Source: Psammoneis japonica (lineage: Eukaryota). Taken from it: DNA of 44,152 nt. The position numbers and the translations under genes are program-made. The stretch is taken from assembly GCA_008632985.1 (NCBI GenBank), contig QPGO01000224.1, positions 62,001-106,152 on the forward strand, given 5' to 3'. Shown piece by piece: positions 1,886-22,204 of the stretch; position 1 is the first letter of the stretch, and each line of letters opens with the position of its first letter. Under the pieces are notes generated by a model, which saw only the letters and a list, made by a program, of their open reading frames with translations, had not been told where the DNA came from and did not search any database.

Positions 1886-2575
1886 CTATTTATATGTTGA
1901 AAACCCTTCACTTCTTTGATGCGCATAAACAATACATACCAAGCAAATCAAAACGGCCGCAACCACCGACGAGGGAGACAGGACTTGTTTCCTAAATCTA
2001 ACGCTGCCGCCTTCAAACACTTCACCCAAGGGAGTCTTGATCCCATCAATGGACCGCACATTCTTTTCCTTTTGATAGTCTAAAATTTCATCGCGACTCT
2101 TCCCCTCAGCCCAGCCCTTAAGCATGTTGCGATCTCCCTTGTAGTCCATGTAGGGCACAGCATATCCACACGATGTTTGTACTCGATCGACATGAAGAAT
2201 TATAATTTGCCGCGTTCCCGGCAACAGATTATCTTGAAAATGCATGCAAGCATCGTTCCATGCTTTGCTAACGTCGTTCCGCAACAGCACCTCTCCACGT
2301 CCATACAAGCGAAGAATTCTCGGACCACCCTCCATGCCACAAAACATGATGGTCAAGCGCCCATTTTCTGAGATGTGAGCAGACGTTTCGTTTCCAGATC
2401 CCGTCATATCTTGATATGCGACGGTATGGTCGTCAATAATACAAAAACTGGAATAGCCCTTGGGCGAGAGATTGACGTGGCCGTTTCTGCTGGATGGGGC
2501 GGAAGCGACAAAGAAAATGTGCTGTTGCGCAATCCATTCTTGGAGAGTAGGTGTAATGTTGGGATGGAGTTTCAT
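1886..2575 (-). CDS. Pyridoxamine 5'-phosphate oxidase-related FMN-binding protein (YLR456W/YPR172W-like) with a C-terminal hydrophobic tail
   Basis: Intact 229 aa ORF. Family motifs FFVASAP..GHVNLSPKG, DMTGSGNETSAH, GRLTIMFC..PRILRLYGRG, VQTSCGYAVP and N.RSIDG; C-terminal segment VVAAVLICLVCIVY. Confidence 0.9.
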   Translation of the reverse strand: MKLHPNITPTLQEWIAQQHIFFVASAPSSRNGHVNLSPKGYSSFCIIDDHTVAYQDMTGSGNETSAHISENGRLTIMFCGMEGGPRILRLYGRGEVLLRNDVSKAWNDACMHFQDNLLPGTRQIIILHVDRVQTSCGYAVPYMDYKGDRNMLKGWAEGKSRDEILDYQKEKNVRSIDGIKTPLGEVFEGGSVRFRKQVLSPSSVVAAVLICLVCIVYAHQRSEGFSTYK

Positions 2576-3758
2576 GGTGTTTCTTAGGGAGACCTTCAGC
2601 TAAAATACTATTCGACGACAATCTGGAGAGTGGAGAGATGAGAAACGTGAACCAACGCAAATGCGGATCTGAACAACATCTTGGACGCAAGAGGATCTTC
2701 CTTGTTCGTCAATGAAGTTCGAAGTTCGAAGTTCACGCGTTTGGTCAAAGGGTTGTTTGATGCAGTTCGTGACTGAGGTACCAGTGTGATACGGTAGTTG
2801 CTGACTCGTGACTGGGAAAAAGATACGCCCACGATACTGTAGCTCTGCAATTTTGGAATTTCAGCATCGATACCGGGCCAGTGCCGGTAGTCTCTACTCT
2901 AGGGCCCTATCCATAGGGCCCTAGGGCCCTACAGCACAGAACATGACGGCGCGACGCATAACGCATTGACTTTATTTGCCACTTTGCTGGGGGCATCTCT
3001 TTGAGAGACACTCTCTGTTTTGCTTCGACTCTCTAATGTAGAGGGTCGTGACAGAGGAGTTATCGTCGTGACGGACTTTGGTTGGTCGCGTGACGTGTGA
3101 ACTTCATGATGTTGGGGGTTGGGGGATGCGAACGCCGATGTCAACTAATCATCTCAATCGTGGATGGCAATGCCAATGTGTTTGAAACAATTATGGTACC
3201 TCCCAAGCCGGATGTACCGTACAATTATGGAGGACAGGCCGACGAGAACTTCTTGCTAAACATTTGGCGTGGTGTCAGAGACCGGCCACGAAATTGATAG
3301 GATCGCTCCAGCCCGTGAGCGTTAAGTAATCAATTGCGAAGCCCTCACTTATCGCATGTTATCTCCCACAAACCTTCCCAAAATTATTTTCAATTATGCA
3401 AAGGATGGGAAGCCGACATAACAACAATGTGAATACACGTCCCTCTTGTACGTGCGGAACGGTAATGCCTGTTCCAACAATTAGGAAGAGTACGAGAGAT
3501 TCCCGTTCTCATAAAAAAAAAAAGAAACAAGGTGAGTAGGTCGTGATGTTTTGCAAGAGCATGATGTGTTTCATCGACTCAATCCTCCTGCATGATCGTT
3601 GTTGCCACTAATGATATAGTAGAAAAGAGTAAACGAAAGACAATCAAGGTGAGACTTACCATAGGTTTATTGCGTTGTTGACTGGATTCCCTTGGAAGAG
3701 ATGAGAGAACTACATTTTCATTTTCCTTATATCTCACCTGATCATCTTTCTTTGTATC

Positions 3759-6512
3759 ATGATTGTCAAACAAAGAAACAGTACAATCTCAGCTGCCGAC
3801 AGGATGGGAAACGCTAGCGCTAGGTGCAAGCCCAACTTCACCCGCAGCGTCGACTCTTCTTGCAGAGCATGCGGCATCGACGTTTTGGATGGCGGACGTT
3901 TCGACCGTGTCGTTTGGAGGGATCCTTCACTAAGCTATTGCGCCAGACCGGGGAGCTACACTTACAAAGTGACGGTTGAGGACTGCGAGGTAGGCAGTTG
4001 TGACAGGGATACGTGTTCCACACGCGTGACCATTGTGGATACGAGGTCACCGGATATACGTTGTCCCTCCAATTACATCTTGGATGCGAATAGCTACTGC
4101 CAGGTTGATCCGAGAAACCTTCAAGTCACTTCCGTTGACAATTGTGATGGAACCAGAGATATTTCGAGTAGTGCGAGTACGCATAGACTAACTGGTGTCG
4201 GAGATCACAGAGTCACATTCCGTGCTTCCGATAGGTATGGCAATGGAAGTTCCAGGGAGTGCAGAGTAAGAGTTCGGGATAGGATGCGACCATCCATCAC
4301 CTGTTTCCCTCATAACTCCGTGTGGGTCGATGGTAAGTGCGAGTTCAATGCTCGTAGCTTTCCAGTCACGTCCAGTGACAACTGCGATGGAACCAGAGAT
4401 GTGTCCGGGTCCGCATCTCCGAGTGTGCTCCGTGGTCCAGGAAATTATGGGGTTCGTTACTATGCCTCGGACAGTTCCGGTAACTCCTATGGTAAGACCT
4501 GTTCTTTACATGTCAGCGACAGGTCGCCGCCAAACATTAAGTGTCCAACCGACTTCAACGTGGACGCAGACGAGAACTGCCAGGCGGACCCTCGAAGCCT
4601 TCAAGTCACTTCCACGGACAACTGTGATGGAACCAGAAACATTTCAAGAAATACAAATACGCATACCCTACATGGTGTGAAACTGCATCATGTCACATAT
4701 TCTGCAAGGGACGGAGCTGGCAACTCAAGATCAAGGTCTTGTCAGGTGCGCGTCGTCGATAACACAAAACCTATTATGAGCTGCCCCGTCATCTCCGTGT
4801 TGCAAGCGAACGAAAGCTGTGAGGCTGATCCAAGCGGTCTTAGGGGCGAGGCCACGGACAATTGCGATCCATATGTATATGCAAGAACTTCCGAGACCAT
4901 GTTACAAGGCATAGGATCGCACAATGTCACATTTTCTGCCACAGATAGATACTCTAATCGTGAGGAAACGGAATGTCCCATTGTGGTCGTAGATAGCGCA
5001 GAGCCGGTTATAGAATGCCCTGAAGCGGAGTTGCTTGCGAACGAAAGCTGCGAAGCCGACCCTCGAAGTCTAACAGGCGTGGCCACTGACAATTGTGATG
5101 CTGAGTTCGATGCAACGACTTCCGAGACTACGCTGAAGGGTGCAGGACCGCACAATGTCATCTTTTCGGCCACCGATGCCTCCTCTAATCGCGGGGAGAA
5201 GGAATGTTCCATTGCGGTCGTGGATAAAGCAAAGCCGAGTATAAGCTGCCCTTCCAGTGCCGAGTTGGAAGCGAACGAAATCTGTGAAGCCGACCCTCAG
5301 AGTCTCAAGGGCGTGGCAACAGACAATTGCGATGATGATTTCGATGCAACGACTTCGCAGACCAAGCTGATGGGTACAGGATCGCACAACGTTATGTTTT
5401 CGGCCACTGATGCCTCCTCCAATGTCGGGGAGAAGGAATGCTCTGTTCTGGTAGTGGATAGAACAACTCCGATGATAACCTGCCCTTCCAGTGCCGAGTT
5501 GATAGCAGACGAACACTGCAAGGTCGATCCCAGTAGCCTGAAGGGAGTGGCTCTGGACAACTGCGATCCTGATTTTGATGCAACGACTTCCGAAACTGAA
5601 TTGCAAGGCGCAGGATCTCACAACGTCCTGTTTTCTGCCACAGATGCGTCCTTCAATCGCGGTGAAAAGGTGTGTTCGATTGCGGTTGTGGATAAAGCAA
5701 AGCCGAGCATAAGCTGCCCTTCCAGTGCGGAGTTGACAGCAGACGAAAACTGTGAGGTCGATCCCAGCAGCCTCAAGGGCGTAGCGATGGACAACTGCGA
5801 TCCTAATTTCGATGCAACGACTTCCACGACCCAATTGCGCGGCGTAGGATCTCACAATGTCATGTTCTCTGCTACGGACAGCTCGTCCAATTCTGAACAG
5901 AAGGAATGCGCGGTAACTGTTGTGGATACGACCCCGCCGACCTTCGACGTCTGCCCAGGAAATCTTGAACTCGAAGCCGAAGCAGGCTGCGTGGCAGAGC
6001 TTCCCTTGGAATTCATGGCAAGTGCAAGTGACAACTGTGGAGGCACAGTGGTAGATTGGGTCGACGATAATGGAAATAAAGTCAGTGGTCGTTTACCTCT
6101 AGGTCAGCACTTCATCTCCTTCCGTGCTACCGACGTGAACGGGAATTGGGCCGACGGTTGCAGGTCCGTCGTGACGATTGAAGATCACGACGACGACGGT
6201 CTCTGTGGTGATGATGATCTCTGTCCTCATACGAAGGACGAGCCCGAGGTAGAACTCAAGCCAAATCACTGGAAGCTAACTAATCAGAAAGATGCAGATA
6301 GCTATCTCTTATATGAGGGATCCAAGCCCAAGAATCGTAGGTACACGACGAAAGATACGGGTGGGTGCTCCTGCTCCCAGATTATCGAGATCTGTGATTA
6401 CGGCAAGGGCATTAGCGAGTTTGGATGTCCCAACGGAGTGATGGATCTCTGGACCGGGCTCTATGACCACGCTGGTGAAGCGCCCTTTCGGTGTGAGGAG
6501 GATCTGAATTAG
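3759..6512 (+). CDS. Large HYR-repeat (Ig-like) extracellular protein with a TSP3-like Ca motif and a Cys-rich C-terminal domain; true 5' exon uncertain
   Basis: 917 aa ORF with about 9 tandem ~79 aa units (D..P.I.CP...DNCD...G.H.V.F.A.D..GN....C.V.V), then DHDDDGLCGDDDLCP and DTGGCSCSQII...FGC...MDLW. No signal peptide in the ORF. A possible acceptor (tctcag, ~3792) suggests an upstream exon. Confidence 0.85.
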   Translation: MIVKQRNSTISAADRMGNASARCKPNFTRSVDSSCRACGIDVLDGGRFDRVVWRDPSLSYCARPGSYTYKVTVEDCEVGSCDRDTCSTRVTIVDTRSPDIRCPSNYILDANSYCQVDPRNLQVTSVDNCDGTRDISSSASTHRLTGVGDHRVTFRASDRYGNGSSRECRVRVRDRMRPSITCFPHNSVWVDGKCEFNARSFPVTSSDNCDGTRDVSGSASPSVLRGPGNYGVRYYASDSSGNSYGKTCSLHVSDRSPPNIKCPTDFNVDADENCQADPRSLQVTSTDNCDGTRNISRNTNTHTLHGVKLHHVTYSARDGAGNSRSRSCQVRVVDNTKPIMSCPVISVLQANESCEADPSGLRGEATDNCDPYVYARTSETMLQGIGSHNVTFSATDRYSNREETECPIVVVDSAEPVIECPEAELLANESCEADPRSLTGVATDNCDAEFDATTSETTLKGAGPHNVIFSATDASSNRGEKECSIAVVDKAKPSISCPSSAELEANEICEADPQSLKGVATDNCDDDFDATTSQTKLMGTGSHNVMFSATDASSNVGEKECSVLVVDRTTPMITCPSSAELIADEHCKVDPSSLKGVALDNCDPDFDATTSETELQGAGSHNVLFSATDASFNRGEKVCSIAVVDKAKPSISCPSSAELTADENCEVDPSSLKGVAMDNCDPNFDATTSTTQLRGVGSHNVMFSATDSSSNSEQKECAVTVVDTTPPTFDVCPGNLELEAEAGCVAELPLEFMASASDNCGGTVVDWVDDNGNKVSGRLPLGQHFISFRATDVNGNWADGCRSVVTIEDHDDDGLCGDDDLCPHTKDEPEVELKPNHWKLTNQKDADSYLLYEGSKPKNRRYTTKDTGGCSCSQIIEICDYGKGISEFGCPNGVMDLWTGLYDHAGEAPFRCEEDLN

Positions 6513-7049: not shown

Positions 7050-8528
7050 TTGAGGCAGTTGCTGCAGGCGCAAAGGGTGGGTGTGCATGGTGCAGCTGCA
7101 GGGTGACAATGTGACACTGAGTGTGGTGTTCCACCAAGCTGAGCACCCCACCAGCTTGGCTTTGAGCCAAGAGCCCTGGCCAGCAGCTGGCTCCACGTTT
7201 GCTCCTCTCCCAGTGTGGTTTGCCTGTCCAAGCTGTGCCATTGCATTTCCAGAGGGCCAGGGAGAAGAAAAAATTGCCAGCTTAACTGCTTGCTTCAGAC
7301 CCTGCATTGTGAGCACGCTCTTGAGAAAAAATGAGAGGTGCTGCAGTGATCTGTGCAGGGAGCAGCCATCATTGGCATGCTCAACAGATCTTGGACCCAG
7401 CTTCACTCTGAGCTTTTTACTTTTCAACCACACAATCAGGGCAAGATTTTTGGAAGTTTTCAGTGGCCCAGGGTGGCTGCACTTTTGAGAGGCCCTTGCC
7501 AATGGCTCTCAGCTGCTTGCAGATGTGCATGTGTTGGGCATGTCACTTGACACAACACTTGCAAGTGGTGTTGTGCCCTCACTCAAAACTGCAGTGCTTT
7601 TTCTAATGTGCCAGTGCCTTGGCTGGGCACATGGTGGGGAGCTCATGCTCTCTTGCAGCTGATGATCTGTCCTTCTTGACCCCCGCTCTTTTGACAGTCA
7701 ACCACAGGCCAGCATCATCCAACTGTGAGAAAGTGCCTTCAATGGGCTGTTGTTTGGGAGCATGCATTGTTGTCTGTGTGGAGCGCACATCTGTCATCCC
7801 AGCGAGAGCTGCAGCAAAGTGTGCACTCTCCCACACTTGTGCCAGGGGGCAGAGTGATGTGTCAACAAGTTGGCCCATGGTGTCAACAAGCAAGCTTGAG
7901 GAAGCTTGCTCCATTTTGCAGCGATGCAGCATTTTGGGTGCCAACAGGGGCTCACATGCCATCTCCAGCTTTGTCAGCCAGTTGCAAAGGGGGCTGCTGC
8001 CACGTGTGGGTTGGGGTGGTCCAGCAAGCTTGCACTCCATGCTGGTGGCACAAAGTGCTGCTGCCATGGCTGCATTGGCATTGATCTGCTGATGTGTCCA
8101 ACAAGGCTTTGGCAGCTTTGGCACAGCACCCTGCTGACAAGGCACTGGCAAGGATGGCATGACTCTTGTGGCTGGGCTGGCACTCTGGAGGGACTGGCAT
8201 GACCTGGGAAGCTGTGCAGGAAGGGCTCAACATTGCCACCACCAGCACCAGAAACAACTTGTTTTGTGGTGTGAAGAGCCCACCAGCACAACCCCAAGTT
8301 GGGTGTCTCAGGTGGCAGCTTGAAAGACAGTCTTTTGCTGCAGCCCAGTGTGTGGGTGGTGCTGTTGCCAAGAGCTGCTTTGCATGAGGGAAACAGACAG
8401 AAAATTTCTGCAGGAGCTGCTTTGTTGATGGTTGGAGCAGTCTGGACTTTGAACTTTGATGGAGAGGCAAGCACAGCAAGATTGGTGTGCCCCAGGCAGC
8501 GTTGATGCTTCTCCTGTCTTGATCTCTT
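7050..8528. repeat. Decayed CpG/TpA-depleted block (unidentified TE or gene remnant)
   Basis: Same dinucleotide depletion and spurious multi-frame ORFs as 1-1650. Confidence 0.55.
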
Positions 8529-8812
8529 GATGCAACAACTTCCAAGACTGCACAAAGGGTGCAGGACCACACAATGTCACCTTTTGGCCACCAATGCCTC
8601 CTCTGATTGTGGAGAGAAGAAGGAGGAGTGCTCCATTGTGGTGGCTGAAAAGGCAAAGGTCGAGCACAAGAAGCTGCTCTCCTGGTGGCAGTGCCAAGTT
8701 GGAGGAAGAGAACAAAACCTGCAAAAAGCCAACCCTCAGAGTCTAAAAGGTGTGGCAATGGACAAATTGCAATGGTGATTTTGATGCATCGACCTTGCAG
8801 GTCAAGTTGCTG
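8529..8812 (+). pseudogene. Mutated duplicate fragment of the HYR-repeat gene (matches ~5109-5370)
   Basis: Aligned by eye, e.g. gatgcaacgacttccgagactacg vs gatgcaacaacttccaagactgca, and gccgaccctcagagtct vs gccaaccctcagagtct. Contains indels. Confidence 0.9.
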
Positions 8813-8873
8813 AATTGGGAATTTGAAACTTGTGCGAGGATTTTTTTAATGACAGCTGACCTCGTCGTCTTTG

Positions 8874-11296
8874 ATGTCGCTTGTCAGTCCCTTCAAGGTT
8901 TGTGGTTCCCACATTGCCGTCATCCGATGCGCTTGCACCATCAACCGTCAAAAGATTGGCGTTTTAGCGGTGGCAATGACAGCGGTCGGTTGCCTTTTAC
9001 TGCGTCGTCAAATCCTTCACAACACTCCCTACCCACCAGCTCTATCTACCATCCAGAGAGATTTGCCGGTTGGACTTATTGGAACCATGAGCAACACCTG
9101 TGTGCCTCCCGAGAAGAATAAGCACAGTAATGTTGACTTTTCCACCTTTGCGTCGTCCACGTTTCTAGATGGGCTCTTTGCGAGCTTTGATTCGGCGTTG
9201 GCGGTGCTTCGAGTGGCTTCACCTTGGGCCATCTCCACGAGGAGGGCGAAAAAGAAGAAGAAGGACAAGCAATTGAGGATTTTTTGAGTTACTCACCAAT
9301 GTTGAACGATTTCTTCGTTTGCCAGAAACATCAGTATCTGCGCGGCGGGGCCTCCAAAAGGCCTTTGTTGTGCTTGTGGAAGGCTTGGATGGTACGGGAA
9401 AGAGCACAATCGTCAAGGGGCTCGTGGACGGCCTAAAGCACATGTCTTATGCTAGCTTACCCATGGCGACCCCGACAGATTCCATAAAGGCTGTGCGCCA
9501 AGTGTTTGACCGCCAGGGTGGTTTGGTGGCACGTGCCTTTTACATGTGCAGCAACTACGTCTTATTTTATGAAATGACAAGGCCTGTCGACAAACCATCA
9601 CTGACAATAACGATCCATTGGTTGTGGTAGTGGATCGCTGGTACGCTTCAACGGCGGCCTATTCGATTGCCTACAAGAATACGACTGGTGGGCCCGATTC
9701 GATCAATGCCGTGGACGAATCACTCTTTTGCTGGCCGTCCGACTTGCTCCGACCCGACCTTTTATTGCTGCTCGAAGCGGATGACAAGGTCCGACGTGAT
9801 CGAGTCCGTGCCAGGAACAAACCCGATGATGGCAATCCGTGGGATCAACGTTTGAATGATGACGTGCAGTTGGGCCAACGAATCATGAGAGCGCTTGAAC
9901 GTGTTGCGGCGGTGGGACCGCAAAGGGTACATGCGCTGAATGCCAATCAAAGCGCCATGCCGTCCGGGAGGATGCTCTTGCCAAGGTTCGTGGTGCTCTC
10001 ATCCGACGCTTTCGACCCGAGGAGTACTTTGTCCGGCGGCCTCTCGATTTCTTTTCCATGGGTTTGGATGAACACAACCATTGTCGTTCCAACCGAAAAA
10101 TGTCAGTCGCTCGGAATGGACTCGAAAAGGGCGCAGCACCTTTTCAGCAGAGTGTGGACATTGCGGCAGTAGATTCCTCGGGCATGCTCTTTTTCTCTCC
10201 AGGCCTTCCTTTCGATGATGCAAGACGTGAAGTGGATGGGCTTGTGTCCATTGTATCTTGTCATGAGACATGTCTACAGGAGTTGCAATGGCGGGCCGAA
10301 GGCCTTGTCTATGAAATTACTCGGGAAGAGTGCTCCTTGCTAGGAACGCCTTTTCCAACCTCACTTGAAAGCAAAGTAGCTGATGTTTCCGGAGAAGTTT
10401 CAGGAAAGGTACATGCAAGACGCTTCATCCCTTTCCGTATGGAGGTATTGATTGGTGGCCCGGGGTCGCACGATGGACCAACACGCCTGGTATGGGCCCG
10501 ATCCCTTGCGAAAGATAATGAGCACGGTGGTTGGAGCCAAGCTCAAAAAAGTCTTGCATTCCGCTCTCCCTCCTCCATCATCATTAGGAGCCCTGTTGTG
10601 CCCAAACGACCTCTGCTTCCCGTGACGGTAGCAATAACGGGTACCCACTGTGCTGGCAAGAGAATCATCGGAGAGCGATTGGCTGCCATCAAGGGTTGGT
10701 TGTTTCACGAGGAACTGGGGGATGTTTTGCGAGACAAGGAAAGCATGGTGAGCGGTAGCCACCGGCATGGGGATGGCTCCGGTGCTCACAACCAATCGGA
10801 ATGGGACCAAAGGGTTCAAGCGGCCGAACTGGAACGAGACGAAAACTCTCTGACAAAAAACCGAGTGGTCGAGACATGGCATGTTGGAAATTGGGCTTGG
10901 CAGCTCTTTCGAAACAAGGGCTCTGATTCGGAACGTGAACGGGTAGCATCTGTAATTCGCAAGTATTGCAGTCGGTCTGTTGTGGTACTCGTGCATTTGA
11001 GCATTCCAGTCAAAGTGTCACTTTCGAGGCATCAAGACGCGAGGAATAAAGTTCGACTTCCCATGCAGAATGAACTTGAGGAATGCAGTGAACTCCATGC
11101 ATCTCTTGAAGATAATTGTCGTGATTTTCTCAGAGAAATGAATGATTTAAAAGAAATGAATGATTTGGGCGTTCTAACCTTGGAACTTGACAACTCACGC
11201 GATGGGCATGAGGCCATTGAAGCAACAACACGCAAGATTGTTCGATTCGTCAACGAAAATCTGTGGAGGAGTGGCATGGTCGTCTCAGGTCCCTAA
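8874..11296 (+). CDS. CMPK2: CMPK2-like (thymidylate-kinase fold) NMP kinase fused to a PNPOx-like domain and a second P-loop kinase-like domain; reconstructed across ~4 frameshifts
   Basis: FVVLVEGLDGTGKST (P-loop 9379-9408), RQVFD..RAFYMCSNY, VVVDRWYASTAAYSIA and WPSDLLRPDLLLLL parallel vertebrate CMPK2. These are followed by VDSSGMLFF..ELQWRAEG..FIPFRMEVLIG..HDGPTRLVW..GGW (PNPOx-like) and VAITGTHCAGKR..RVVETWHVGN (second kinase). Frame joins near 9220, 9365, 9580-9595 and 9957. Start codon uncertain. Confidence 0.8.
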
Positions 11297-11587
11297 CTGC
11301 TTGACAAGAATCCCCATCTTTTTGTCTTGCAGCACCTACAGGCATCCGAACCGTTCGTAGTAGGCGAGTGTGCCTTCCTTTTTGGAGAAAGCACGCTTGG
11401 TAAGACGTTTACAACTGACTTGATTAGATGGTATCAGAAACATGCCCATTCGTATGATACATTGGCGGCGCATGAGATTATTGGTAATAGTCAAGGTGAT
11501 TATTTTGCGTGAAGATTTGTGAGGTCGATCACGATAATAATGAGTGAATCCCACCTCATCAATTCTATAATCTATCTCTATTATTTG

Positions 11588-12742
11588 CTACTTTACGAGT
11601 GTCTGGTTCAAGGACCAGAGCGGCTCTGCATCGATGAGAGAATTGTCCTTTCGATCTCGTTTCCAATCGTAAATACCCCCACGTTGTTCGAAAATTCAAG
11701 ATCAAAACCAGCTTGCTCCAAGGCACGGTGGACTCCCACCTTGAGAATGCTCTCCGAGGGGACTTTGCCGCCGTCGGAGCAGTCAAGAAAACACATGTTT
11801 TCGTCCAGCAAAAGATACGAGTTTGCATGACATTGTTGGGTTCGGGAATCATTATTTGAGAAAACTCATTATTGTGCCGGTCGACAAAGCTTTGAAATTG
11901 TCTTGCCGAAATGGTGAGCGAACGAGCATCGCGCAACTCCCCCGGTCCTCCGGCGTTTTCGCCCTTGAGAATGAGGCACTGAAAGACCTTCCACCGTTCT
12001 GGATTGAGCAGTTGGATGTTGGATCGCATGTCTTCTTCCCAATTCAGTCGACAAACGACAGTGTTTATTTTGAATTTGATGCCGTGTTGGTTGCACAAAT
12101 CGCGGACTCTGTTATTGACGGCAAATGGTGTGCGGGGTTTCAGTTAGCAATAAGGCCGTTTATTGTGTCATAATGAAGTACATGAAGTACAGTAGCAGGC
12201 GTCAACTTGTGTACAAGAAGAAAACAAACTCACCCAAGGACACGATCCACGTGCCGATTGTTCGCGTCACCTCCTCGTCCAATCGCCGCATTGGTGGCCG
12301 GAACAAAGGAGTCACAACTGACGGCCAAAACATCAACGTAGTTTCCGTATTCCTCCATCCATTTCTGTGTCACCAGAGATCCATTGGATACAATGCTCAC
12401 AGCCAATCCGAGATGGTGCGCCGAGCGGCACAATTCTCCCAATAAATGAGGTTTGAGAAAGGGTTCTCCACCGGCGAAATTGATCTTTTCCGTCCCCGCC
12501 TTTTGGAGCATGGCCAGGCCGGCACGACCCATTTGCAGGTCGAGGTGGTTTGTGTTCTTTTGTGTGTGAAAGCAAAACTTGCAAGAATAGTTGCAAACGC
12601 GGGAAATAAAGTAGTTCACCGACCGAACGGGGGATGATGCTTCTTTGCCATTGTTGTCGTTCATCGCCGCAGCGTTGTCCCAATCACTTGGCAGTGACGA
12701 GGAGACTCGCAACAACAACTCGTGCCGAGATAAAGGCGGCAT
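11588..12742 (-). CDS. RSAD2: Viperin (radical SAM ddhNTP synthase); 2 exons, with two 1-nt frameshifts in exon 2
   Basis: [19 protein letters not shown] (CxxxCxxC at 12572-12595), [44 protein letters not shown] and [20 protein letters not shown]. Restoring one A (~11822) and one T (~11692) gives the C-terminus RGGIYDW..VK-stop at 11588. The start may lie further upstream (~12908). Confidence 0.93.
12109..12233 (-). other. Spliceosomal intron of viperin (125 nt)
   Basis: GTGAGT donor, GCTAAC branch-like site and AACAG acceptor. Splicing joins [21 protein letters not shown] in frame. Confidence 0.85.
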
Positions 12743-13049
12743 TGCTGCGCGAGTAGTGAAAGAGGGAAAAGATACTGACGAGGACGCACCCACCAGCCCA
12801 GCTCGACGCGGCTCACCACCTCTCTGCGACAACCAGGCCGCACTGGTCGCTGGACGAGCAGCGTTGCAAGGACAATGGCGACGAGGAACAAGGAGGACAA
12901 CAACACATGGTTCTTTTCCTCCTTTGTGGTCGTGGACAGCAATAGAAAACAACAACAGAACCAAACTTATTTCCACTTTCCACGCCCTTTTGACGCGCGC
13001 AATTGAAAGCATCGGCATTGCGCGCGCTGGCAGCGAAAATTATTTCCTC

Positions 13050-16000
13050 AGCGTGCTGTTGTTGGAACCTCAGGGTTACCGTACGCAGAGGCAGTTTTCA
13101 CAGCACAGACAGGCACAAAGTTGCAGTGGAAGATGCGGCACATGCACTGAATGTTGTGAACGACGTGGCAAACATGAGCAGTTCGGGTTGCAGGTCTTGT
13201 GCTCACTTTTTAGCTTCTGCAACCAGGCAACACGGTGACCACCTGCTGCTGCAGGAACACTCTTGAGTTGGAGGCCATTTTTGCAGGACAGACAGACAAA
13301 TTTGCAGCGGAAGATGCGCGCGCTGATGATTGCGGACAATGCAGCAAACATGAGTGGTTTGGGCAGGTTGCAGGTCTTGTGCTCACTTTTCAGCTTCTGC
13401 ACCCAGGCAACATGGTGAACAGCCCAGCGCACAGTCAATGGCAATGTGTTTGCAAGCCATGCGGCAAGTTCGGAGTCAGTGAGACCAAGTGCAAACTAAG
13501 CCGGCAAGCCACGGACTCCAGCACAGAAGCTGAAAAGTCATGGCATGACACTCAAAAGAGTGGCATCATTCAAGGGTTGGGAAGTCATGAGGGGTCCAAA
13601 GGCAAAGGCTGGGAAGTTGTTGACAGGAATTCAAAGGAAAAGGCTGGAAAGTTGACAGGAGTCCAAAGGCACATCTCATGTGTTGGCAGATTGCAGTGAA
13701 CAAGCCAGCTGGATGAGGGCAAAGAAATAAATCTCCAGAGGGCCTTGTTGTCAAAAAAGCTGTCAAGTGTCTCCTGAAAAAAGGTGCAGCAAGAAGGTCA
13801 CATCAGGGTCGGTGAGACAGTGCGTGGCTGTTGGCAATTCATGAAACTCCAACATGAGCCCCGGAAAACATGGGCAAGGACACAGCTGAGTGTGGAAGCA
13901 CTGAAGATCCAAAGGAGTGGGTGTGTGACACCATTGCTGTGTCAGAGCAACAGGCAGATGATGATTGCATGGAAAGCCAGTGAAAAGATTGGTGCGAGCA
14001 TTTTGGAAGAATGTCCAGGCCAGAGATGCAGAGGCTGGTGTCCATGAGGCTGGAAAGCATGCACAAAGAGCCATCTGGGGCAAGAAAGAATGTGACCACT
14101 GTGTGAAGCAGAATGTGATCTCTGCAAGATTCAGAAGGTGAGGGCATTTTTTGCATGATTGTGGGGCAGCATGCAAAAGCCATTCATCAAAAACTTGAAG
14201 GAGCAATGGAGTTTGCAAGAGTCGCAAAGGAGTGGGGTGTGGCAGCACTGCTGGATGTTCTCAAGTTGATCTTGTTTGATGCAAATGGGAAGACAAACCC
14301 GCATGTTCAGGTGGTCAAGGCTTGGAAGCAACTGGCACTCATTTGCCAAAATGAAGAAGAGGGTGCTTTAAGATTGTCACAATGAGTTTGTGAGAGTGGT
14401 GGAAGTGGTGGAAGTGTCCCACAGCAGGATCATCTCAGAAGAAATCACCAAGAATGAAGATGGGTTTAGCAAGATGTGACATGTGGGCAGTCAGCAGTTT
14501 CTGTGAATCTGTGCAGAATTTGCACTGAAGCCTGTGCGGAAAACTTTCTGAGCCAACAGAAAATTGCAAGAAATGACGACCAGCACATGAACCATTGGGC
14601 TTCAACATTCATCATTTTTCACTGATGAACATTGCTCATCATGCTGCAATGAGGTTGTGCCATCAGTGAATGTGGGCAAAACAGGCTTGTTGGAGCCAAC
14701 AAGATGCCATCTCTGAGAAAGGTGACATCAGCAGCACAAGAAGTTGCACAGAACCCCTTGCAGAAGCTGAGGGCTGATGTCAAAAAGTCACCCAGAACAA
14801 AGAAAGGAGCAAGTTGTCAGCTGTGACGTGCTGATGGAAGGTGCCAAGGAATGTTGGCATGTCTTGAAAAACTTGCATGGGCAGCTCACACTGGGGATGG
14901 ACATTTGTCCAAATTCAGCGGGCCAAGGAGGCACTGCAGGTGTTGGACACCTGTGGGACCAACAGGAAACCTGAGCACACGAGCTTTGCACAGAACAAGA
15001 AGAAGCAGACCAAATGCTGGAAATGCAACTAAGTTCAGACATCCAAGGAGGGATTGTCCTGACAATGATCATTCATTGGCGGAGTCAGATGATGTGGGCC
15101 ACAGGAATTGGCAGAACAGTTGATGTGGTGTTGGGCAGCATGGTTTCCAAGTGTCATCCTCCCATTCTTGATGTGCACAAGGCCAGTCAATTGATGACTC
15201 ATCAAAGAAGTGTGGTGTTAGAGAGCATTGGGGTGAGAGGCAGTTTTCACAGGACAGACAAAGTTGCAGTGGAAGATGCACTGATGACTGTGGATGAAGT
15301 GGCAAATGCATGTTCGTGGCTTGGTTTGGGTTGCAGGTCTTGTGCTTGCTTTTTAGCTTTTGCACCCAGTCAACATGGCAATGGTGGTCAATGGTGACAG
15401 CAATGTGTTTGCAAGCCACGCAGTGAGTTCAGAGTCAGCAAGACTAAAAACACACTGGTTGGCAAACTGGTCAACCAATGTTGCACACCAACCAAGATTT
15501 GGCACAACATCCCTTTCTCTTTCAAAAATCAACCATGGCACACCACTTTTGAAGTGCCCCCCCCCCCCCCCCCCCAAAAAAGAAAGCAGAGTTTACAAAA
15601 AGGGCACTCGGCCAGCAGCAGGGCTGCCAGAGTTGATGAGGCACTTTCTACACACCCGAGACAACAAAAATTGGGTCTGGCAAGAAGAAGACTGCTGCAG
15701 CCAAGAATGATCAAGATGAGAAGTGCAAGGCATCAGTGGATGGTGGTTGGGTCCACTGCAGCAAAAAAAACAAGGACAAACATCTCTGTTGGCCCAAGCA
15801 AGGGGCCTCATCTGTCAACCACAACAGGCACTGTGAACAAATGCCTGCCTGAGAAGGGCTGGCATTGTGGTGGCAATGGAGAAGCTCAATTGACCAAAGA
15901 AGCACCCACCACCAATGTTGTTGGAGCACCAGTCAATGTCATCAGAAAGCACATCAATGGCAGACCTGTGGGGCAGCATCAGATTGGAAGCCACACATTG

Positions 16001-20028: not shown

Positions 20029-21649
20029 TTAGCGCGTCGTCGTCGAACCATACGCCGTGGTGATGGCATCTTCAATGTCAGAAGAAGAAAAGGAACCTTC
20101 CAAGTCATCTTCCTCATCGAAGGTACTCATGGTTTCCATAGTTTCCAAAGACCGAGGGGAACCAACGGCATCGTCCTTTTTTGGTAGATAGATATCGTCC
20201 GGTCGAAAGCGCATCACAAGCTTGACTAGGTCGGCCAACAGCCAAGCGACAGAAAAGACACCCGATGCTTCCAGTAAGAGACAAAATTGAATGGTGAAAC
20301 GAGCGACGGGGTTACCGATAAACGCAATGGGAAAGATGAAGCGATAATCCGCCAAATCAACGATGCCACCACAGTAGTGATGAGAGCACCGGGCAATCCC
20401 GTGTTGAAGAAATCTTGCAGACCGTCACTGACACCCAGAACAGTCTTTCCTTTTTCTACTGTTGGGTCCACATCGGTCGTGGTGATGCGAGCCAGCAGGA
20501 ACATACAAGTCGTCACACAAATTTGACGACCAATCAGAAAGGCTTTGAAGTTGTAGCCTTGGAATACCAGCTTACAATTGGCATGGGCAGAGGGGTGTTT
20601 GGCGAGCTCTCGCTCGGGGAGTTTCACCACTGCAAAGACGGCAATCTGCATGGCTTCCAGTACGCCCAAGAAGCATGTCAATCCGAAGAATATGGCAATC
20701 GATACAGTCTTGTTCAGGCCCTTGCACATGGTGGTCTGGCCATTCAACAGAGCCGACCACGTGACAGCAATGGCACCAGCGAGAAGAGCAAAGGAGAATG
20801 CCACACGAATCCAGTATGTAAAACGTTCCGACGGGGATCGTGATGGCCGGTAGTCGACGACGACTCTTCGTTGGCAAACATGGAAAAGAAGCACTGTATC
20901 AAATAGGTTGCATGTAGCAAACCGGAGGCTTCAACGGCCAGGCATACCCACGTCGTAGCTACCATATAGGGTGTGTTGATAAAGTCCAGCATGCAATTGG
21001 TGGCATTCACTTCGGCCGAGAGTTGCCCCAAAATGACGGTGATCAACATGACGGCCAAACCCGACCCCAAAATAATCTCAATCATTTCTTTGTTAAACCC
21101 TGGAACTTGAGCGTCTTCAACCACAGTGCAGCACAAGTTGAGGCAAAACACCACGAGTACGACCAAAAACTGTCGACCGACAATAAAGCGGTTCAAGTTA
21201 TCTCCTTTGTATACCATGGCTGTGCATTGATATGCGCTGGTATGACTTTGTTGATAGGCAACGGGGTCTATCGGCTGCAGTCCCACCAACGACCCTTGTC
21301 CTCCTTCCAGTACTCCCAGCCAGAAAATGAGTAACCACATGGCTATAAAGGCTACCATGGGGTTGGACTCTTTGGCCACGGGAGTTTCATTGGCTATAAT
21401 ACCGGCCAGGATCATATTCAGACATAAACCCAACAGCGCCAAGGAACAACTATATTTTATCATGCGGATGACTTGCTCTCGACTGATTCCCTGCTTCCTA
21501 GCGCTGATCACCCAAGAACATAGTGTTCTGCTAGATGGTGACGATGGTTCCTCTTCCGACTCACAATTGCTTGTCATGAAAAAGCGTTCCGTACCACCTT
21601 GTGAAGAAGATCCATCACAATTTAGTTGACCTTTCTCGGTGTCAATCAA
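20029..21649 (-). CDS. SIT: Silicic acid transporter (SIT); reconstructed across two 1-nt frameshifts (~20820 and ~20330); start uncertain
   Basis: LEGGQGSLVGL, NRFIVGRQFLV, GQL.AEVNATNCMLDFIN, EASGLLHA.Y, LEAMQIA.FAV, FLIGRQICVT..MF..ARIT, FFNTGL.GALITT.VAS..WR..ASSFP and LEASGV.S.AW; about 10 hydrophobic segments. Confidence 0.93.
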
Positions 21650-22204
21650 GGGCTGCTTTTCGGGAACAGATACGTCTTGTTGGCCATCGCTTGTTAAAAT
21701 GGACTCATGGTGGCAATGACAAGAGATCGTTTACTCGAAGCCTCCTTGGCGGTTCGCCTCTTTGCTATGTATGCAATTTTTTTGCATAAAATAATGATGA
21801 TGAGGCAGGAAACTCGATCTGTGTGTGCAAACGAAAAACAGACATCGATTTTTAAGTTGAATGTTGCCTATCCAGCTTTTGTAATGAACATATAATTCCA
21901 ACTGCCCTTCCAACTGTTTTTCAACAAAAACCGACGTTGAATCATTATGTATTTATCTGTCAATAACGTTCTAACCGTTATAAGACAGAGAAAGGACTCC
22001 AAACAGACATCCGTTTAAATTTTAAAAATAATATGAATTTATTCAGTCTTAAATAAATAATTTATGCCAGCCCCTGTGGAATTCCTGTACAGTATGGCAT
22101 TGGAACCGTTATTTTTTTAATACATCATAAGACAGAGAAAGCATCGTCACAGGCTCAGAATCATCTCGCATCCTCCCACTTTTTGCGTTTTCTCGGACTG
22201 GATC

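Follow-up and report, generated by a model that had tools for sequence, protein, structure and literature searches.

The window analysed here, a stretch of 44,152 nucleotides from contig QPGO01000224.1 of the diatom Psammoneis japonica (assembly GCA_008632985.1), encodes on its plus strand a fusion gene (~9087-11296) in which a CMPK2-like thymidylate-kinase domain is followed by a split barrel of the PNPOx/PhzG type and then by a second P-loop kinase, referred to as K2. Convergent with it, a viperin gene is encoded on the minus strand (11549..13039), which carries the radical SAM motif CNYSCKFC (ORF 12230-13039) and matches PF04055 (53 bits) and the PADLOC model pVip (E 2.4e-36). Two sets of contigs were available for comparison, X1 (short-read contigs, depth 40-57) and X2 (labelled 'DNA?'); both are from the same organism and one sample, and may be the source data of the window assembly. 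The viperin gene contains a GT-AG intron (12109-12233, minus strand), the ends of which were read in the sequence and which is skipped in an X2 contig.

The first-pass annotation had the fusion begin at 9360. With tblastn, residues 1-765 of a relative of 767 aa (P0001) were matched in the window, and the alignment therefore places the gene start at ~9087 rather than at 9360, about 270 nt further upstream; an in-frame ATG upstream of 9087 is possible. From there the gene can be read by tblastn as five frame pieces (9087-9218, ~9221-9277, 9280-9591, 9597-9953 and 9959-11296), the first of which (9087..9218, plus strand; MSNTCVPP...GLFASFDSALAVLRVA) is the N-terminal region and corresponds to P0001 residues 1-42, and the last of which ends in the stop codon at 11294..11296. 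The stop-to-stop frame 9899-11296 comprises 465 codons and includes the 412-aa ORF that starts at the ATG at 10058. The open frame reading AVREDALAKVRGALIRRF, which the first-pass annotation had joined to that ORF, is present as it was noted.

The tri-domain architecture proposed by the first-pass annotation is real, as the same three domains are found in single ORFs of relatives. Indeed, one stretch covering at least 690 of the 757 profile positions is matched, with all three domains in one ORF, in at least 19 cluster representatives (50% identity), and relatives of 700-790 aa carry PF02223 plus PF13521/PF13238. The window retains 94 of the 102 columns that are conserved at ≥90% among 27 full-length relatives, the members themselves deviating at 0-10 of them. 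Its departures from the family include the loss of nine residues, G335, R337 and W343 among them, and the substitutions G400E and P403L. Of 17 related metagenome loci, 13 have viperin downstream and tail-to-tail, and the remaining four, which end within 188 nt, are too short to show it. Two-domain relatives that lack the barrel (L013-L018) also adjoin viperin. The linkage of kinase and viperin genes has been described across eukaryotes (10.1101/2023.09.13.557418). As had been supposed when this architecture was said to be unlike described CMPK2 proteins, no description of it was found in the searched literature, although supplementary tables 5 and 6 of the same source, in which viperin-associated kinases and fusions are listed, may include the family. 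In a protein cluster atlas, P0001 matched only thymidylate-kinase-like clusters, with scores <0.9, and the barrel gave no usable match.

The CMPK2-like domain is encoded at 9280..9953 on the plus strand (pieces 9280-9591 and 9597-9953) and shares 53-68% identity with P0001 by tblastn. With the P-loop defined as GxxGxGK[ST], the second motif as DR[YHW] and the lid as an arginine-rich stretch, the domain contains a P-loop GLDGTGKST (9382-9408), a DRW motif (9633-9641, within VDRWY at 9630-9644) and, at the place expected for the lid, the arginine-rich VRRDRVRARNK. PF02223 is matched at 9573-10172 (28.3 bits, cut-off 27); the first piece alone (9277-9630) scores 19.7 bits and P0001 41.5 bits. TIGR00041 is also matched, with scores under its equivalog cut-off, and the domain is therefore not a bona fide dTMP kinase equivalog. 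Among the best 150 matches to the family profile, the best outside the family are animal proteins named 'UMP-CMP kinase 2, mitochondrial' (E 1e-30 to 1e-36); among the best 60 of 68 matches to solved structures, the first is the Mycobacterium tuberculosis thymidylate kinase (E 2.5e-7). In PADLOC, the N-terminal kinase of P0001 matches PDC-M51B (E 8.7e-16) and VakA (E 4e-10), a name that we take to stand for viperin-associated kinase. Judged from its sequence, this domain is a CMPK2-like NMP kinase of the thymidylate-kinase fold, with an intact P-loop, DRW motif and arginine-rich lid region. Animal CMPK2 likewise has a thymidylate-kinase-fold domain and a gene beside viperin/RSAD2; it is, however, a protein of ~420-480 aa with its own N-terminal domain and a C-terminal kinase, whereas the diatom fusion has its CMPK2-like kinase close to the N-terminus, ahead of the PNPOx-type barrel and a second kinase. 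When the N-terminal domain of animal CMPK2 was compared with the whole family alignment, in which the K2 columns were not isolated, it showed no similarity beyond one weak match (E 0.33), to the pre-kinase helix.

The barrel is encoded at 9986..10609 on the plus strand (model residues 5-191, ~9998-10558) and includes the motifs ELQWRAEG and RFIPFRMEVLIGGP. The first-pass annotation had read this middle region as a PNPOx-like FMN split barrel, a fold that AlphaFold2, Foldseek and VIA confirm: the region, whose failure to model in this way had been named as grounds for rejection, did model as a split barrel (pLDDT 86.7, pTM 0.82). The top 20 Foldseek matches are all PNPOx, PhzG or PNPOx-related proteins (E 1.6e-8 to 1e-6, TM 0.53-0.62), with human PNPOx as the best (E 1.6e-8). 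The match to Escherichia coli PNPOx spans the whole length of that protein (VIA Z 14.6, rmsd 2.8, 148 aligned residues), and residues 8-191 of the model superpose on residues 20-218 of chain 1wv4_A, C-terminal segment included. Matches to heme-binding barrels of the HugZ/ChuZ type were weaker (Z 9-10 against 14.6 for PNPOx), and this assignment was set aside. At the sequence level, hhalign aligned the barrel family with enterobacterial PdxH over 187 columns (probability 77%, E 2e-5), the PdxH profile being shallow (relatives at ≥80% identity), and vestiges of PdxH/PNPO motifs can be read in QWRAEG (human QVRVEG), in RFVP..E..GG (FRV...EFWQGG) and in a terminal W....LP. Neither in the window barrel nor in those of three relatives did a Pfam PNPOx model match with E up to 10; at that threshold the window barrel matched zero Pfam families, and the sole match among the three relatives was to the unrelated DUF5845, in one of them. 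A PNPOx chain is likewise absent from the best 60 of the 68 solved-structure matches (E up to 1) to the family profile. Sequence, fold and context together establish the barrel as a full-length homologue of the FMN oxidases of the PdxH/PhzG type. A second ORF with PNPOx_N is present in the window (1886-2599, minus strand); in hhalign it showed nothing relevant against the family, and phmmer found no solved relative of it.

The residues of the barrel were compared with those of PdxH through the hhalign alignment, not through superposed coordinates, using a list of FMN contacts from PMC10969823. In E. coli numbering, the positions kept among the 27 relatives are V69 (24), T/S83 (22), Q111 (22), E189 (24) and R201 (22); furthermore, a basic residue stands at R67 in 24 of the 27, the window having Q there, and an arginine stands at the position of human R141 in 24 of the 27. 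No conserved residue corresponds to the contacts R88, Q146 and S147, and 23 of the 27 have L in place of W191. The pyridoxal-phosphate site differs from that of PdxH/PNPO throughout: K72 is H in 14 relatives and D in 6, R197 is S in 18, H199 is P in 22, and Y129 and R133, which lack a counterpart, align to L and to variable residues. Because most FMN-contact residues are kept and the pyridoxal-phosphate residues are replaced, the barrel is probably a flavoprotein and not a PNP oxidase, and it should not be classed as a PNP/PMP oxidase. A prediction of two barrel copies together with FMN returned a score of 0.00 with the fold uncertain and no alignment used, which counts neither for nor against flavin binding. 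A further difference from PdxH/PNPO is the location of the fusion-gene barrel between two kinases.

The barrel might instead be a flavin-free pseudo-enzyme, serving as a dimerisation or spacer module between the kinases or as a site for a phosphorylated ligand other than FMN. The missing Pfam PNPOx match, the contacts R88, Q146 and S147 that lack counterparts, the change of W191 to L and the replacement of all pyridoxal-phosphate residues fit such a role, as do the two-domain proteins beside viperin (L013-L018), which manage without a barrel, and the bacteria in which a radical SAM domain takes its place between two kinase parts. However, seven flavin- or phosphate-contact positions are retained in 22-24 of the 27 relatives, and the residues that stand in at the substrate site show conservation of their own (K72 to H in 14, R197 to S in 18, H199 to P in 22), so that the site looks like a working pocket and not a relaxed one. 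This alternative is therefore regarded as somewhat unlikely, and a flavoprotein barrel is preferred.

The K2 domain follows directly (10610..11293, plus strand) and is delimited on the basis of the AlphaFold2 model (pLDDT 94.5), VIA, column counts and prokaryotic relatives. Its fold matches are nearly tied (VIA Z 15.1-16.7): dTMP kinase (2plr, Z 16.7), deoxyadenosine kinase (8puu and 2jas, Z 16.5) and NadR kinase (8x7f, Z 15.2), with a Foldseek E of 6.5e-7. AAA_18 scores 19.3 bits on K2 of the window (E 0.0016, cut-off 29.4), whereas the relatives P0001 (38.2 bits) and P0106 (57.8 bits) exceed the Pfam threshold; both AAA_18 and AAA_28 are matched on relatives, and TIGR01526, the kinase part of NadR, is matched in P0106 (E 1.2e-6) and P0034 (E 7.8e-5). 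Sequence, fold and context agree in making K2 a kinase of the nucleoside/nucleotide-kinase fold. This fold is common to the NadR, deoxynucleoside and dTMP kinases (AAA_28/AAA_18); K2 differs from them by an invariant set of its own, which comprises G-x-H-x-x-G-K, ELG..LR, WD, E..RD and RVVETWH.GN..W, the ETWH of the window being encoded at 10871-10882. The atypical Walker A pointed out in the first-pass annotation (GTHCAGKR, 10640-10663; GTHCAGKRI, 10640-10666) is present. Indeed, K2 of the window is devoid of the canonical GxxxxGK[ST] and reads GKRI instead of the GK[ST][ST] of these kinases, which is atypical even within its own family: among 65 relatives, the residue after the Walker A lysine is variable (A in 16, S in 15, K in 10, others) and the next one is T in 57, S in 3 and I in 2.

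Homologues of K2 are also encoded in prokaryotes, in clusters of a kinase, a radical SAM enzyme and K2 (L019-L026). In the sets L019-L024, a K2 homologue lies beside, or is fused to, a PDC-M51B-like kinase and a radical SAM enzyme, and in some bacteria the radical SAM domain is located between two kinase parts. In contrast to the diatom fusion, these sets are devoid of a PNPOx-type domain, and the match of their radical SAM protein to pVip is only weak (E 1.6e-8); in the diatom, viperin has a gene of its own, convergent with the fusion. Prokaryotic K2 has a GKTT Walker A and shares 20 invariant residues with K2 of the fusion family. A radical SAM neighbour was found at only 2 of 15 K2-like loci in prokaryotic genomes, and K2 is therefore not specific to viperin-like systems. 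The recurrence of K2 in prokaryotic clusters of a kinase and a radical SAM enzyme suggests that the ancestral module had two kinases.

Taken as a whole, the locus is best explained, with a probability of roughly 60%, by one plus-strand gene of ~735 codons (~9087-11296), the diatom version of the viperin-associated kinase, probably intact, with kinases in series and a flavoprotein barrel. The two kinases could supply or maintain the pyrimidine nucleotide pool for viperin, for instance from cytidine or CMP to CDP/CTP; successive phosphorylation by the CMPK2-like domain and K2, as put forward in the first-pass annotation, is plausible. The barrel, as a flavoprotein that would probably be dimeric by analogy with solved PNPOx enzymes, could oxidise or reduce a ligand that is not pyridoxine phosphate and may be a nucleotide or the viperin product, or could provide electrons for viperin. 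Few immune gene linkages have been followed all the way from prokaryotes to animals, and the pairing of viperin and CMPK2 is among them. The searched literature presents the partner of viperin as one kinase whose N-terminal extensions have no known function; in the diatom it is a three-enzyme protein, conserved over many sequences of marine eukaryotes. Its flavin-type domain, with the pocket altered, hints that the chemistry goes further than supplying CTP and involves either the nucleotide product or the delivery of electrons. In a more far-reaching version, which must be considered unlikely, the viperin pathway of diatoms and their relatives would have further steps: as an active flavoenzyme with a novel substrate pocket, the conserved barrel would act on a nucleotide handled by the kinases on either side of it, for instance by oxidising or reducing the didehydro-nucleotide product of viperin or the corresponding nucleoside. 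What the locus makes, recycles or detoxifies would then be an antiviral nucleotide other than plain ddhCTP, and K2, shared with prokaryotes, would represent an ancient second kinase in systems that modify nucleotides by radical SAM chemistry.

In the window, the reading frame of the fusion gene breaks four times within the first 870 nt (~9220, ~9280, ~9590 and ~9957), each time by one base and always in the same direction. The frameshift near 9957 reported in the first-pass annotation is thus real in the window, but its count of one was wrong. The breaks are as follows: (i) at 9218..9222, one base is missing, and an X1 contig has a C inserted behind 9218, with which the frame is open from 9087 to about 9290; (ii) at 9280..9285, a run of six T is covered by no listed contig and was recognised from sequence context and the family alignment, one extra T in the run giving ...EDFFELL... 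as in relatives; (iii) within 9577..9600, where the frame switches between tblastn pieces, one base is missing, and the second X1 record has 488 letters over 9343-9826 against 484 in the window (+1 modulo 3); and (iv) at 9953..9959, the frame switches in both the ORFs and tblastn, and the third X1 record has 233 letters over 9797-10028 against 232, with zero substitutions; for (iii) and (iv), restoration of the frame was judged from the lengths of the X1 contigs and not from base positions. Introns are ruled out as the source of the frame changes, the relatives aligning gapless across each break with tblastn. Three of the four breaks (1, 3 and 4) do not occur in the short-read contigs from this organism, where extra bases repair them; the breaks are therefore most likely errors in the assembly consensus, and the gene is probably intact in the organism and neither a pseudogene nor two genes.

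If the breaks were real mutations, the fusion gene and the neighbouring viperin gene would form a decaying pseudogene, the last 412 codons of which would be open by chance or as a remnant. The density of damage in the window itself (four breaks in 870 nt plus two or three in viperin) would agree with decay, as would the changes at several conserved positions, among them I in place of T in the Walker A and Q where R67 would stand, and the nature of the eight substitutions listed between the window and X1 inside the fusion gene, six of which alter the amino acid by codon reading, all at variable columns. Against this, all breaks are single missing bases, for which X1 has the base at the first and frame-restoring lengths at the third and fourth, and one of the X1 contigs spanning a break is otherwise identical to the window. 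Viperin is repaired by insertions of the same kind: it misses single bases at 11583, 11695 and 11821 in the window, and with three inserted bases it aligns to relatives over 153-157 residues, compared with 121 before. Besides, a silicon transporter gene in the window (20226-21730) is likewise split between frames, which points to a general fault of the assembly, the 94 of 102 conserved columns are retained, and X2 contains a spliced viperin contig together with fusion-gene pieces, six in number. Decay of the locus is accordingly held to be decidedly unlikely, and an intact gene with assembly errors remains the preferred reading.

The first-pass annotation had also proposed that the flavin domain passes electrons to the [4Fe-4S] cluster of viperin, which would make the fusion a substrate supplier and a reductase in one. 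The fold with most FMN contacts present, the strict linkage to viperin and a weaker structural match (Z 8.8) to a small Desulfovibrio protein that binds FMN and transfers electrons would be compatible with this role, and to our knowledge the physiological reductant of eukaryotic viperin is not settled. The nearest structures are, however, by far those of PNPOx/PhzG (Z 13-14.6), which are oxidases of a bound small molecule and not NAD(P)H-dependent flavin reductases or flavodoxins; the domain searches of the window and of relatives detected no NAD(P)H-binding or flavodoxin-like domain in the fusion protein; and viperin, being linked to barrel-less relatives as well, does not need it. A donor role for the barrel is consequently very improbable.

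Finally, a division into two genes, namely a CMPK2-like kinase ending at ~9960 and a PNPOx-K2 protein starting from the ATG at 10058, is hardly credible: the 412-aa ORF is the longest ATG ORF in the window as given and no listed X2 contig bridges 9827-9998, but the frame is open from 9899, the stretch 9959-10057 (VRGALIRRFRPEEYF...) aligns to relatives, the first helices of the barrel (model residues 2-28) are encoded upstream of that ATG, and the junction lies within a single ORF in the cluster representatives (at least 19) and in loci such as L002.

In the Psammoneis japonica window, the fusion gene encoding a CMPK2-like kinase, a middle domain and a second P-loop kinase (K2) starts at about 9087, approximately 270 nt upstream of the start at 9360 proposed by the first-pass annotation. 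Indeed, in a tblastn search, residues 1-765 of its closest relative (P0001, 767 aa) were matched across 9087-11272. This match is in pieces, with frame shifts at about 9220, 9280, 9590 and 9955 (breaks 1 to 4 hereafter); the frame break previously reported near 9957 is thus genuine, with three others besides. One missing base accounts for each frame change, and introns were ruled out as the cause because relatives align ungapped over each break. ORF translation gives a stop-to-stop frame of 465 codons (9899-11296, + strand), which contains the 412-aa ATG ORF, and Pfam detects thymidylate-kinase-like sequences outside this frame at 9277-9630 (+ strand; with GLDGTGKST) and 9573-10172 (+ strand; with VDRWY). 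A search with the 465-aa frame returned 17 relatives, most of them 700-790 aa long with PF02223 plus PF13521/PF13238, for which the JGI label is 'thymidylate kinase'. The viperin gene is convergent with the fusion gene (11565-13039, minus strand; PF04055; PADLOC pVip, E 2.4e-36).

The frame breaks could be consensus errors of the assembly or marks of decay. Three coded runs of one sample contain this stretch, and their contigs were placed on window positions 8000-14000. Relative to the window, contigs of the first run, X1 (depth 40-57), carry scattered substitutions and single extra bases. In brief, X1 has an additional C exactly at break 1, behind 9218; over break 3, a second X1 record (9343-9826) has 488 letters versus 484 in the window, i.e. 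+1 modulo 3; and over break 4, a third record (9797-10028) has 233 letters versus 232, with zero substitutions. The listed contigs cover breaks 1, 3 and 4; break 2 falls inside a run of six T (9280-9285), where a seventh T would give EDFFELL, as in the relatives. The viperin gene presents the same picture: X1 contigs insert bases behind 11583, 11695 and 11821, and once these three bases are inserted in silico, 153-157 residues of exon 2 align to relatives, compared with 121 before. A silicon transporter gene (PF03842; 20226-21730, minus strand), whose presence identifies the window as diatom DNA, is also split: profile positions 4-231 and 199-392 fall in different, overlapping frames, probably because of another one-base assembly error. 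Since all frame-affecting differences within coding sequence are bases absent from the window, and in view of the X1 insertions, the viperin repair and the split silicon transporter, the breaks are read as consensus errors and the fusion gene is probably intact. A true pseudogene, to which the four breaks themselves would point, is a minor alternative; the window keeps 94 of the 102 columns conserved at ≥90% among 27 full-length relatives, which themselves miss 0-10.

Elsewhere in the window, a 935-codon frame (3705-6512, + strand) encoding HYR and bacterial Ig-like domains is unbroken over 2.8 kb, and assembly errors are therefore unevenly distributed. Just past the viperin 5' end, 13025-14000 is a repeated element: X1 word depth there rises to 1600, compared with about 51 nearby, and joints and loose ends are numerous. 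A contig of a second run, X2, joins 12108 to 12234 and omits 12109-12233, which has GT..AG ends on the minus (viperin) strand; X2, though labelled 'DNA?', therefore probably holds RNA. The fusion gene is represented in X2 by six contig pieces, none of which bridges 9827-9998. The K2 tail carries an 18-nt direct duplication (11139-11174; MNDLKE MNDL..); as an X2 contig covering 10670-11530 falls 18 letters short of the window, a form of the tail lacking one copy may exist.

The middle domain, for which Pfam gave no match with a threshold as loose as E 10, either in the window or in three relatives, is a split barrel of the pyridoxine 5'-phosphate oxidase (PNPOx) type, as the first reading had suggested; model, fold matches and profile alignment agree on this. 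An AlphaFold2 model of 9986-10609 built with 47 relatives reached pLDDT 86.7 and pTM 0.82. Its top Foldseek matches in the PDB were human and E. coli PNPOx and PhzG (E 1.6e-8 to 1e-6, probability 1.00, TM 0.53-0.62), and VIA-align placed model residues 8-191 on chain residues 20-218 of E. coli PNPOx (Z 14.6, rmsd 2.8, 148 aligned, 20% identity), with general-stress and heme-binding barrels ranking lower (Z 9-12). Furthermore, hhalign aligned the middle-domain profile with a shallow enterobacterial PdxH profile, referenced to E. coli K-12 pdxH (probability 77%, E 2e-5, 187 columns), with the following vestiges in the barrel and PdxH, respectively: PL.FF and PLTLF; P.LR.V and PYQRIV; G..FFT and GMVFYT; QWRAEG and RQVMVIG; RFVP.R.E.L.GG and FRVSLEQIEFWQGG; and W....LP at the end. 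A separate ORF 7 kb upstream (1886-2599, minus strand) is a genuine PNPOx_N hit in Pfam (E 6.3e-11); its sequence is unrelated to the fusion-gene barrel and phmmer found zero solved relatives for it.

Described FMN contacts include T111, Q139, R141, Q174, S175, E217, W219 and R229 in human PNPOx and V69, R88 and W191 in the E. coli enzyme, and the pyridoxal-phosphate residues include Y129, R133, S137, R197 and H199 (PMC10969823). Equivalences to PNPOx were taken from the profile alignment, not from superposed coordinates, and counted in 27 full-length relatives. R67, a phosphate contact, is R or K in 24 of these (Q in the window). The residues V69 (V, 24/27), T83 (T or S, 22/27), Q111 (Q, 22/27), human R141 (R, 24/27), E189 (E, 24/27) and R201 (R, 22/27) are matched in the window by V, S, Q, R, E and R. 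W191 is L in 23/27 relatives (window L), K72 is H in 14/27 and D in 6/27 (window A), R197 is S in 18/27 (window S) and H199 is P in 22/27 (window P); a conserved counterpart of R88, Q146 and S147 is absent from this alignment. On these counts, the flavin side of the site appears largely retained and the substrate side appears to consist of other conserved residues, so that the barrel is a predicted flavoprotein with a different substrate. PNP oxidase was rejected as its identity, as the substrate-side residues are replaced.

For K2, AlphaFold2 (10586-11293, 67 relatives) gave pLDDT 94.5 and pTM 0.91. Against 48,161 chains, the top VIA-align matches were tied between dTMP kinase 2plr (Z 16.7, rmsd 2.7, 182 aligned), deoxyadenosine kinases 8puu and 2jas (Z 16.5) and the NadR kinase domains 8x7f (Z 15.2) and 6gye (Z 15.1); Foldseek was in agreement, and the NCBIfam NadR model weakly matches the K2 part of relatives. 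The invariant set comprises G-x-H-x-x-G-K, ELG..LR, H..G, WD, E..RD and RVVETWH.GN..W...R. Among 65 relatives, the residue after the Walker A lysine varies (A 16, S 15, K 10, others) and the second one is mostly T (T 57, S 3, I 2). The window has GKRI, lacking a hydroxyl at both positions, and thus departs further from a typical Walker A than the arginine noted at first implied. The prokaryotic homologues have GKTT. Adenylate kinases use GKGT, and a GK-x-T loop is therefore not necessarily inactive.

Searching 1.84 billion cluster representatives with a profile built from 11 full-length relatives gave 1793 matching proteins at an E threshold of 0.001, of which 139 also passed 1e-30. In at least 19 representatives, a single stretch covers ≥690 of the 757 profile positions. 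Proteins of 416-480 aa match the first kinase domain only, at their C-terminus; those named 'UMP-CMP kinase 2, mitochondrial' come from a frog, a bird, lizards, a ribbon worm and a scallop, and 'CMPK2-like' is therefore a fair label on sequence grounds. The first kinase of P0001 also matches the PADLOC models PDC-M51B (E 8.7e-16) and VakA (E 4e-10). Other relatives combine this kinase and K2 without the middle domain (e.g. P0034, P0039, P0041-43).

A scan of metagenome contigs yielded 23 loci, 17 close and six more distant, the latter prokaryotic. Viperin lies downstream on the opposite strand in 13 of the 17 close loci (seven three-domain, six two-domain); in the other four the contig ends 5-188 nt past the kinase gene. 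In two loci of the two-domain type (L015, contig of 30.7 kb; L017, 36.7 kb), the barrel-less kinase gene either converges with viperin or lies close to it, and its neighbours include a zinc alcohol dehydrogenase gene and a fragmented nitric oxide synthase gene; this arrangement looks like a conserved eukaryotic block. In prokaryotic clusters (L019-L026), a thymidylate-kinase-like gene (PDC-M51B), a radical SAM gene (weak pVip) and a K2 homologue occur together. L019 and L020 encode, one after the other, a PDC-M51B-like kinase (E 7.8e-51), a radical SAM protein (pVip, E 1.6e-8) and a K2 homologue (custom K2 HMM, E 1.7e-32), and in L022-L024 these parts are closely packed, with radical SAM and K2 in one ORF in L024. 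GTDB genomes contain 15 K2-like loci, two with a radical SAM gene of the L019/L020 kind just upstream; the remainder, mostly in Patescibacteria and DPANN archaea, have no radical SAM neighbour. Since most of these loci are without, and some prokaryotic loci with, such a gene, K2 represents a broader kinase family, part of it tied to radical SAM nucleotide enzymes. The occurrence of K2-like kinases with ETWH.GN but no radical SAM neighbour in Patescibacteria, Nanohalarchaeota, Aenigmatarchaeota and other groups (L027-L039) would be consistent with a general role in nucleotide salvage.

Viperin-kinase linkage, viperin fusions and CMPK2 N-terminal extensions 'of unknown function' have been described (10.1101/2023.09.13.557418). 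The CMPK2 and kinase passages of that article mention neither a C-terminal barrel nor a second kinase, its main text contains neither the word diatom nor stramenopile, and its supplements may list members; the word kinase is absent from PMC10732462. The three-domain architecture was not found described in the literature searched on viperin with CMPK2, diatoms, stramenopiles, thymidylate kinase, PNPOx, pyridoxamine, split barrels and flavin. The viperin-kinase partnership is known, and the three-domain partner, confirmed here and extended by fold, sequence, conservation and linkage, is apparently a new version of it.

The proposed mechanism builds on the domain identities, their conservation and the linkage, in a gene that is probably intact. 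Human CMPK2 is established to convert the monophosphate into CDP/UDP (in 10.1101/2023.09.13.557418), and the CMPK2-like domain would do likewise. K2 could catalyse a neighbouring step, either phosphorylating a nucleoside to its monophosphate, as do the NadR and deoxynucleoside kinases that it resembles, or acting on another phosphorylation state. The barrel would bind FMN as a dimer, as in solved PNPOx enzymes, and perform a redox step on some ligand. The first-pass interpretation is partly supported: the three-domain architecture and the PNPOx-like middle domain hold, and successive phosphorylations by the two kinases are plausible. Electron donation from the flavin domain to viperin is an unlikely role with no specific support, given that the nearest structures of the barrel are substrate oxidases, that the fusion protein has no NAD(P)H domain and that relatives without the barrel are equally linked to viperin.

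The wider family also includes proteins of reversed architecture, with K2 before the CMPK2-like kinase (e.g. P0106, P0116). In P0094 and P0118, this reversed order is followed by a terminal 2OG-Fe(II) oxygenase domain, a second case of an oxidoreductase fused to the two kinases.
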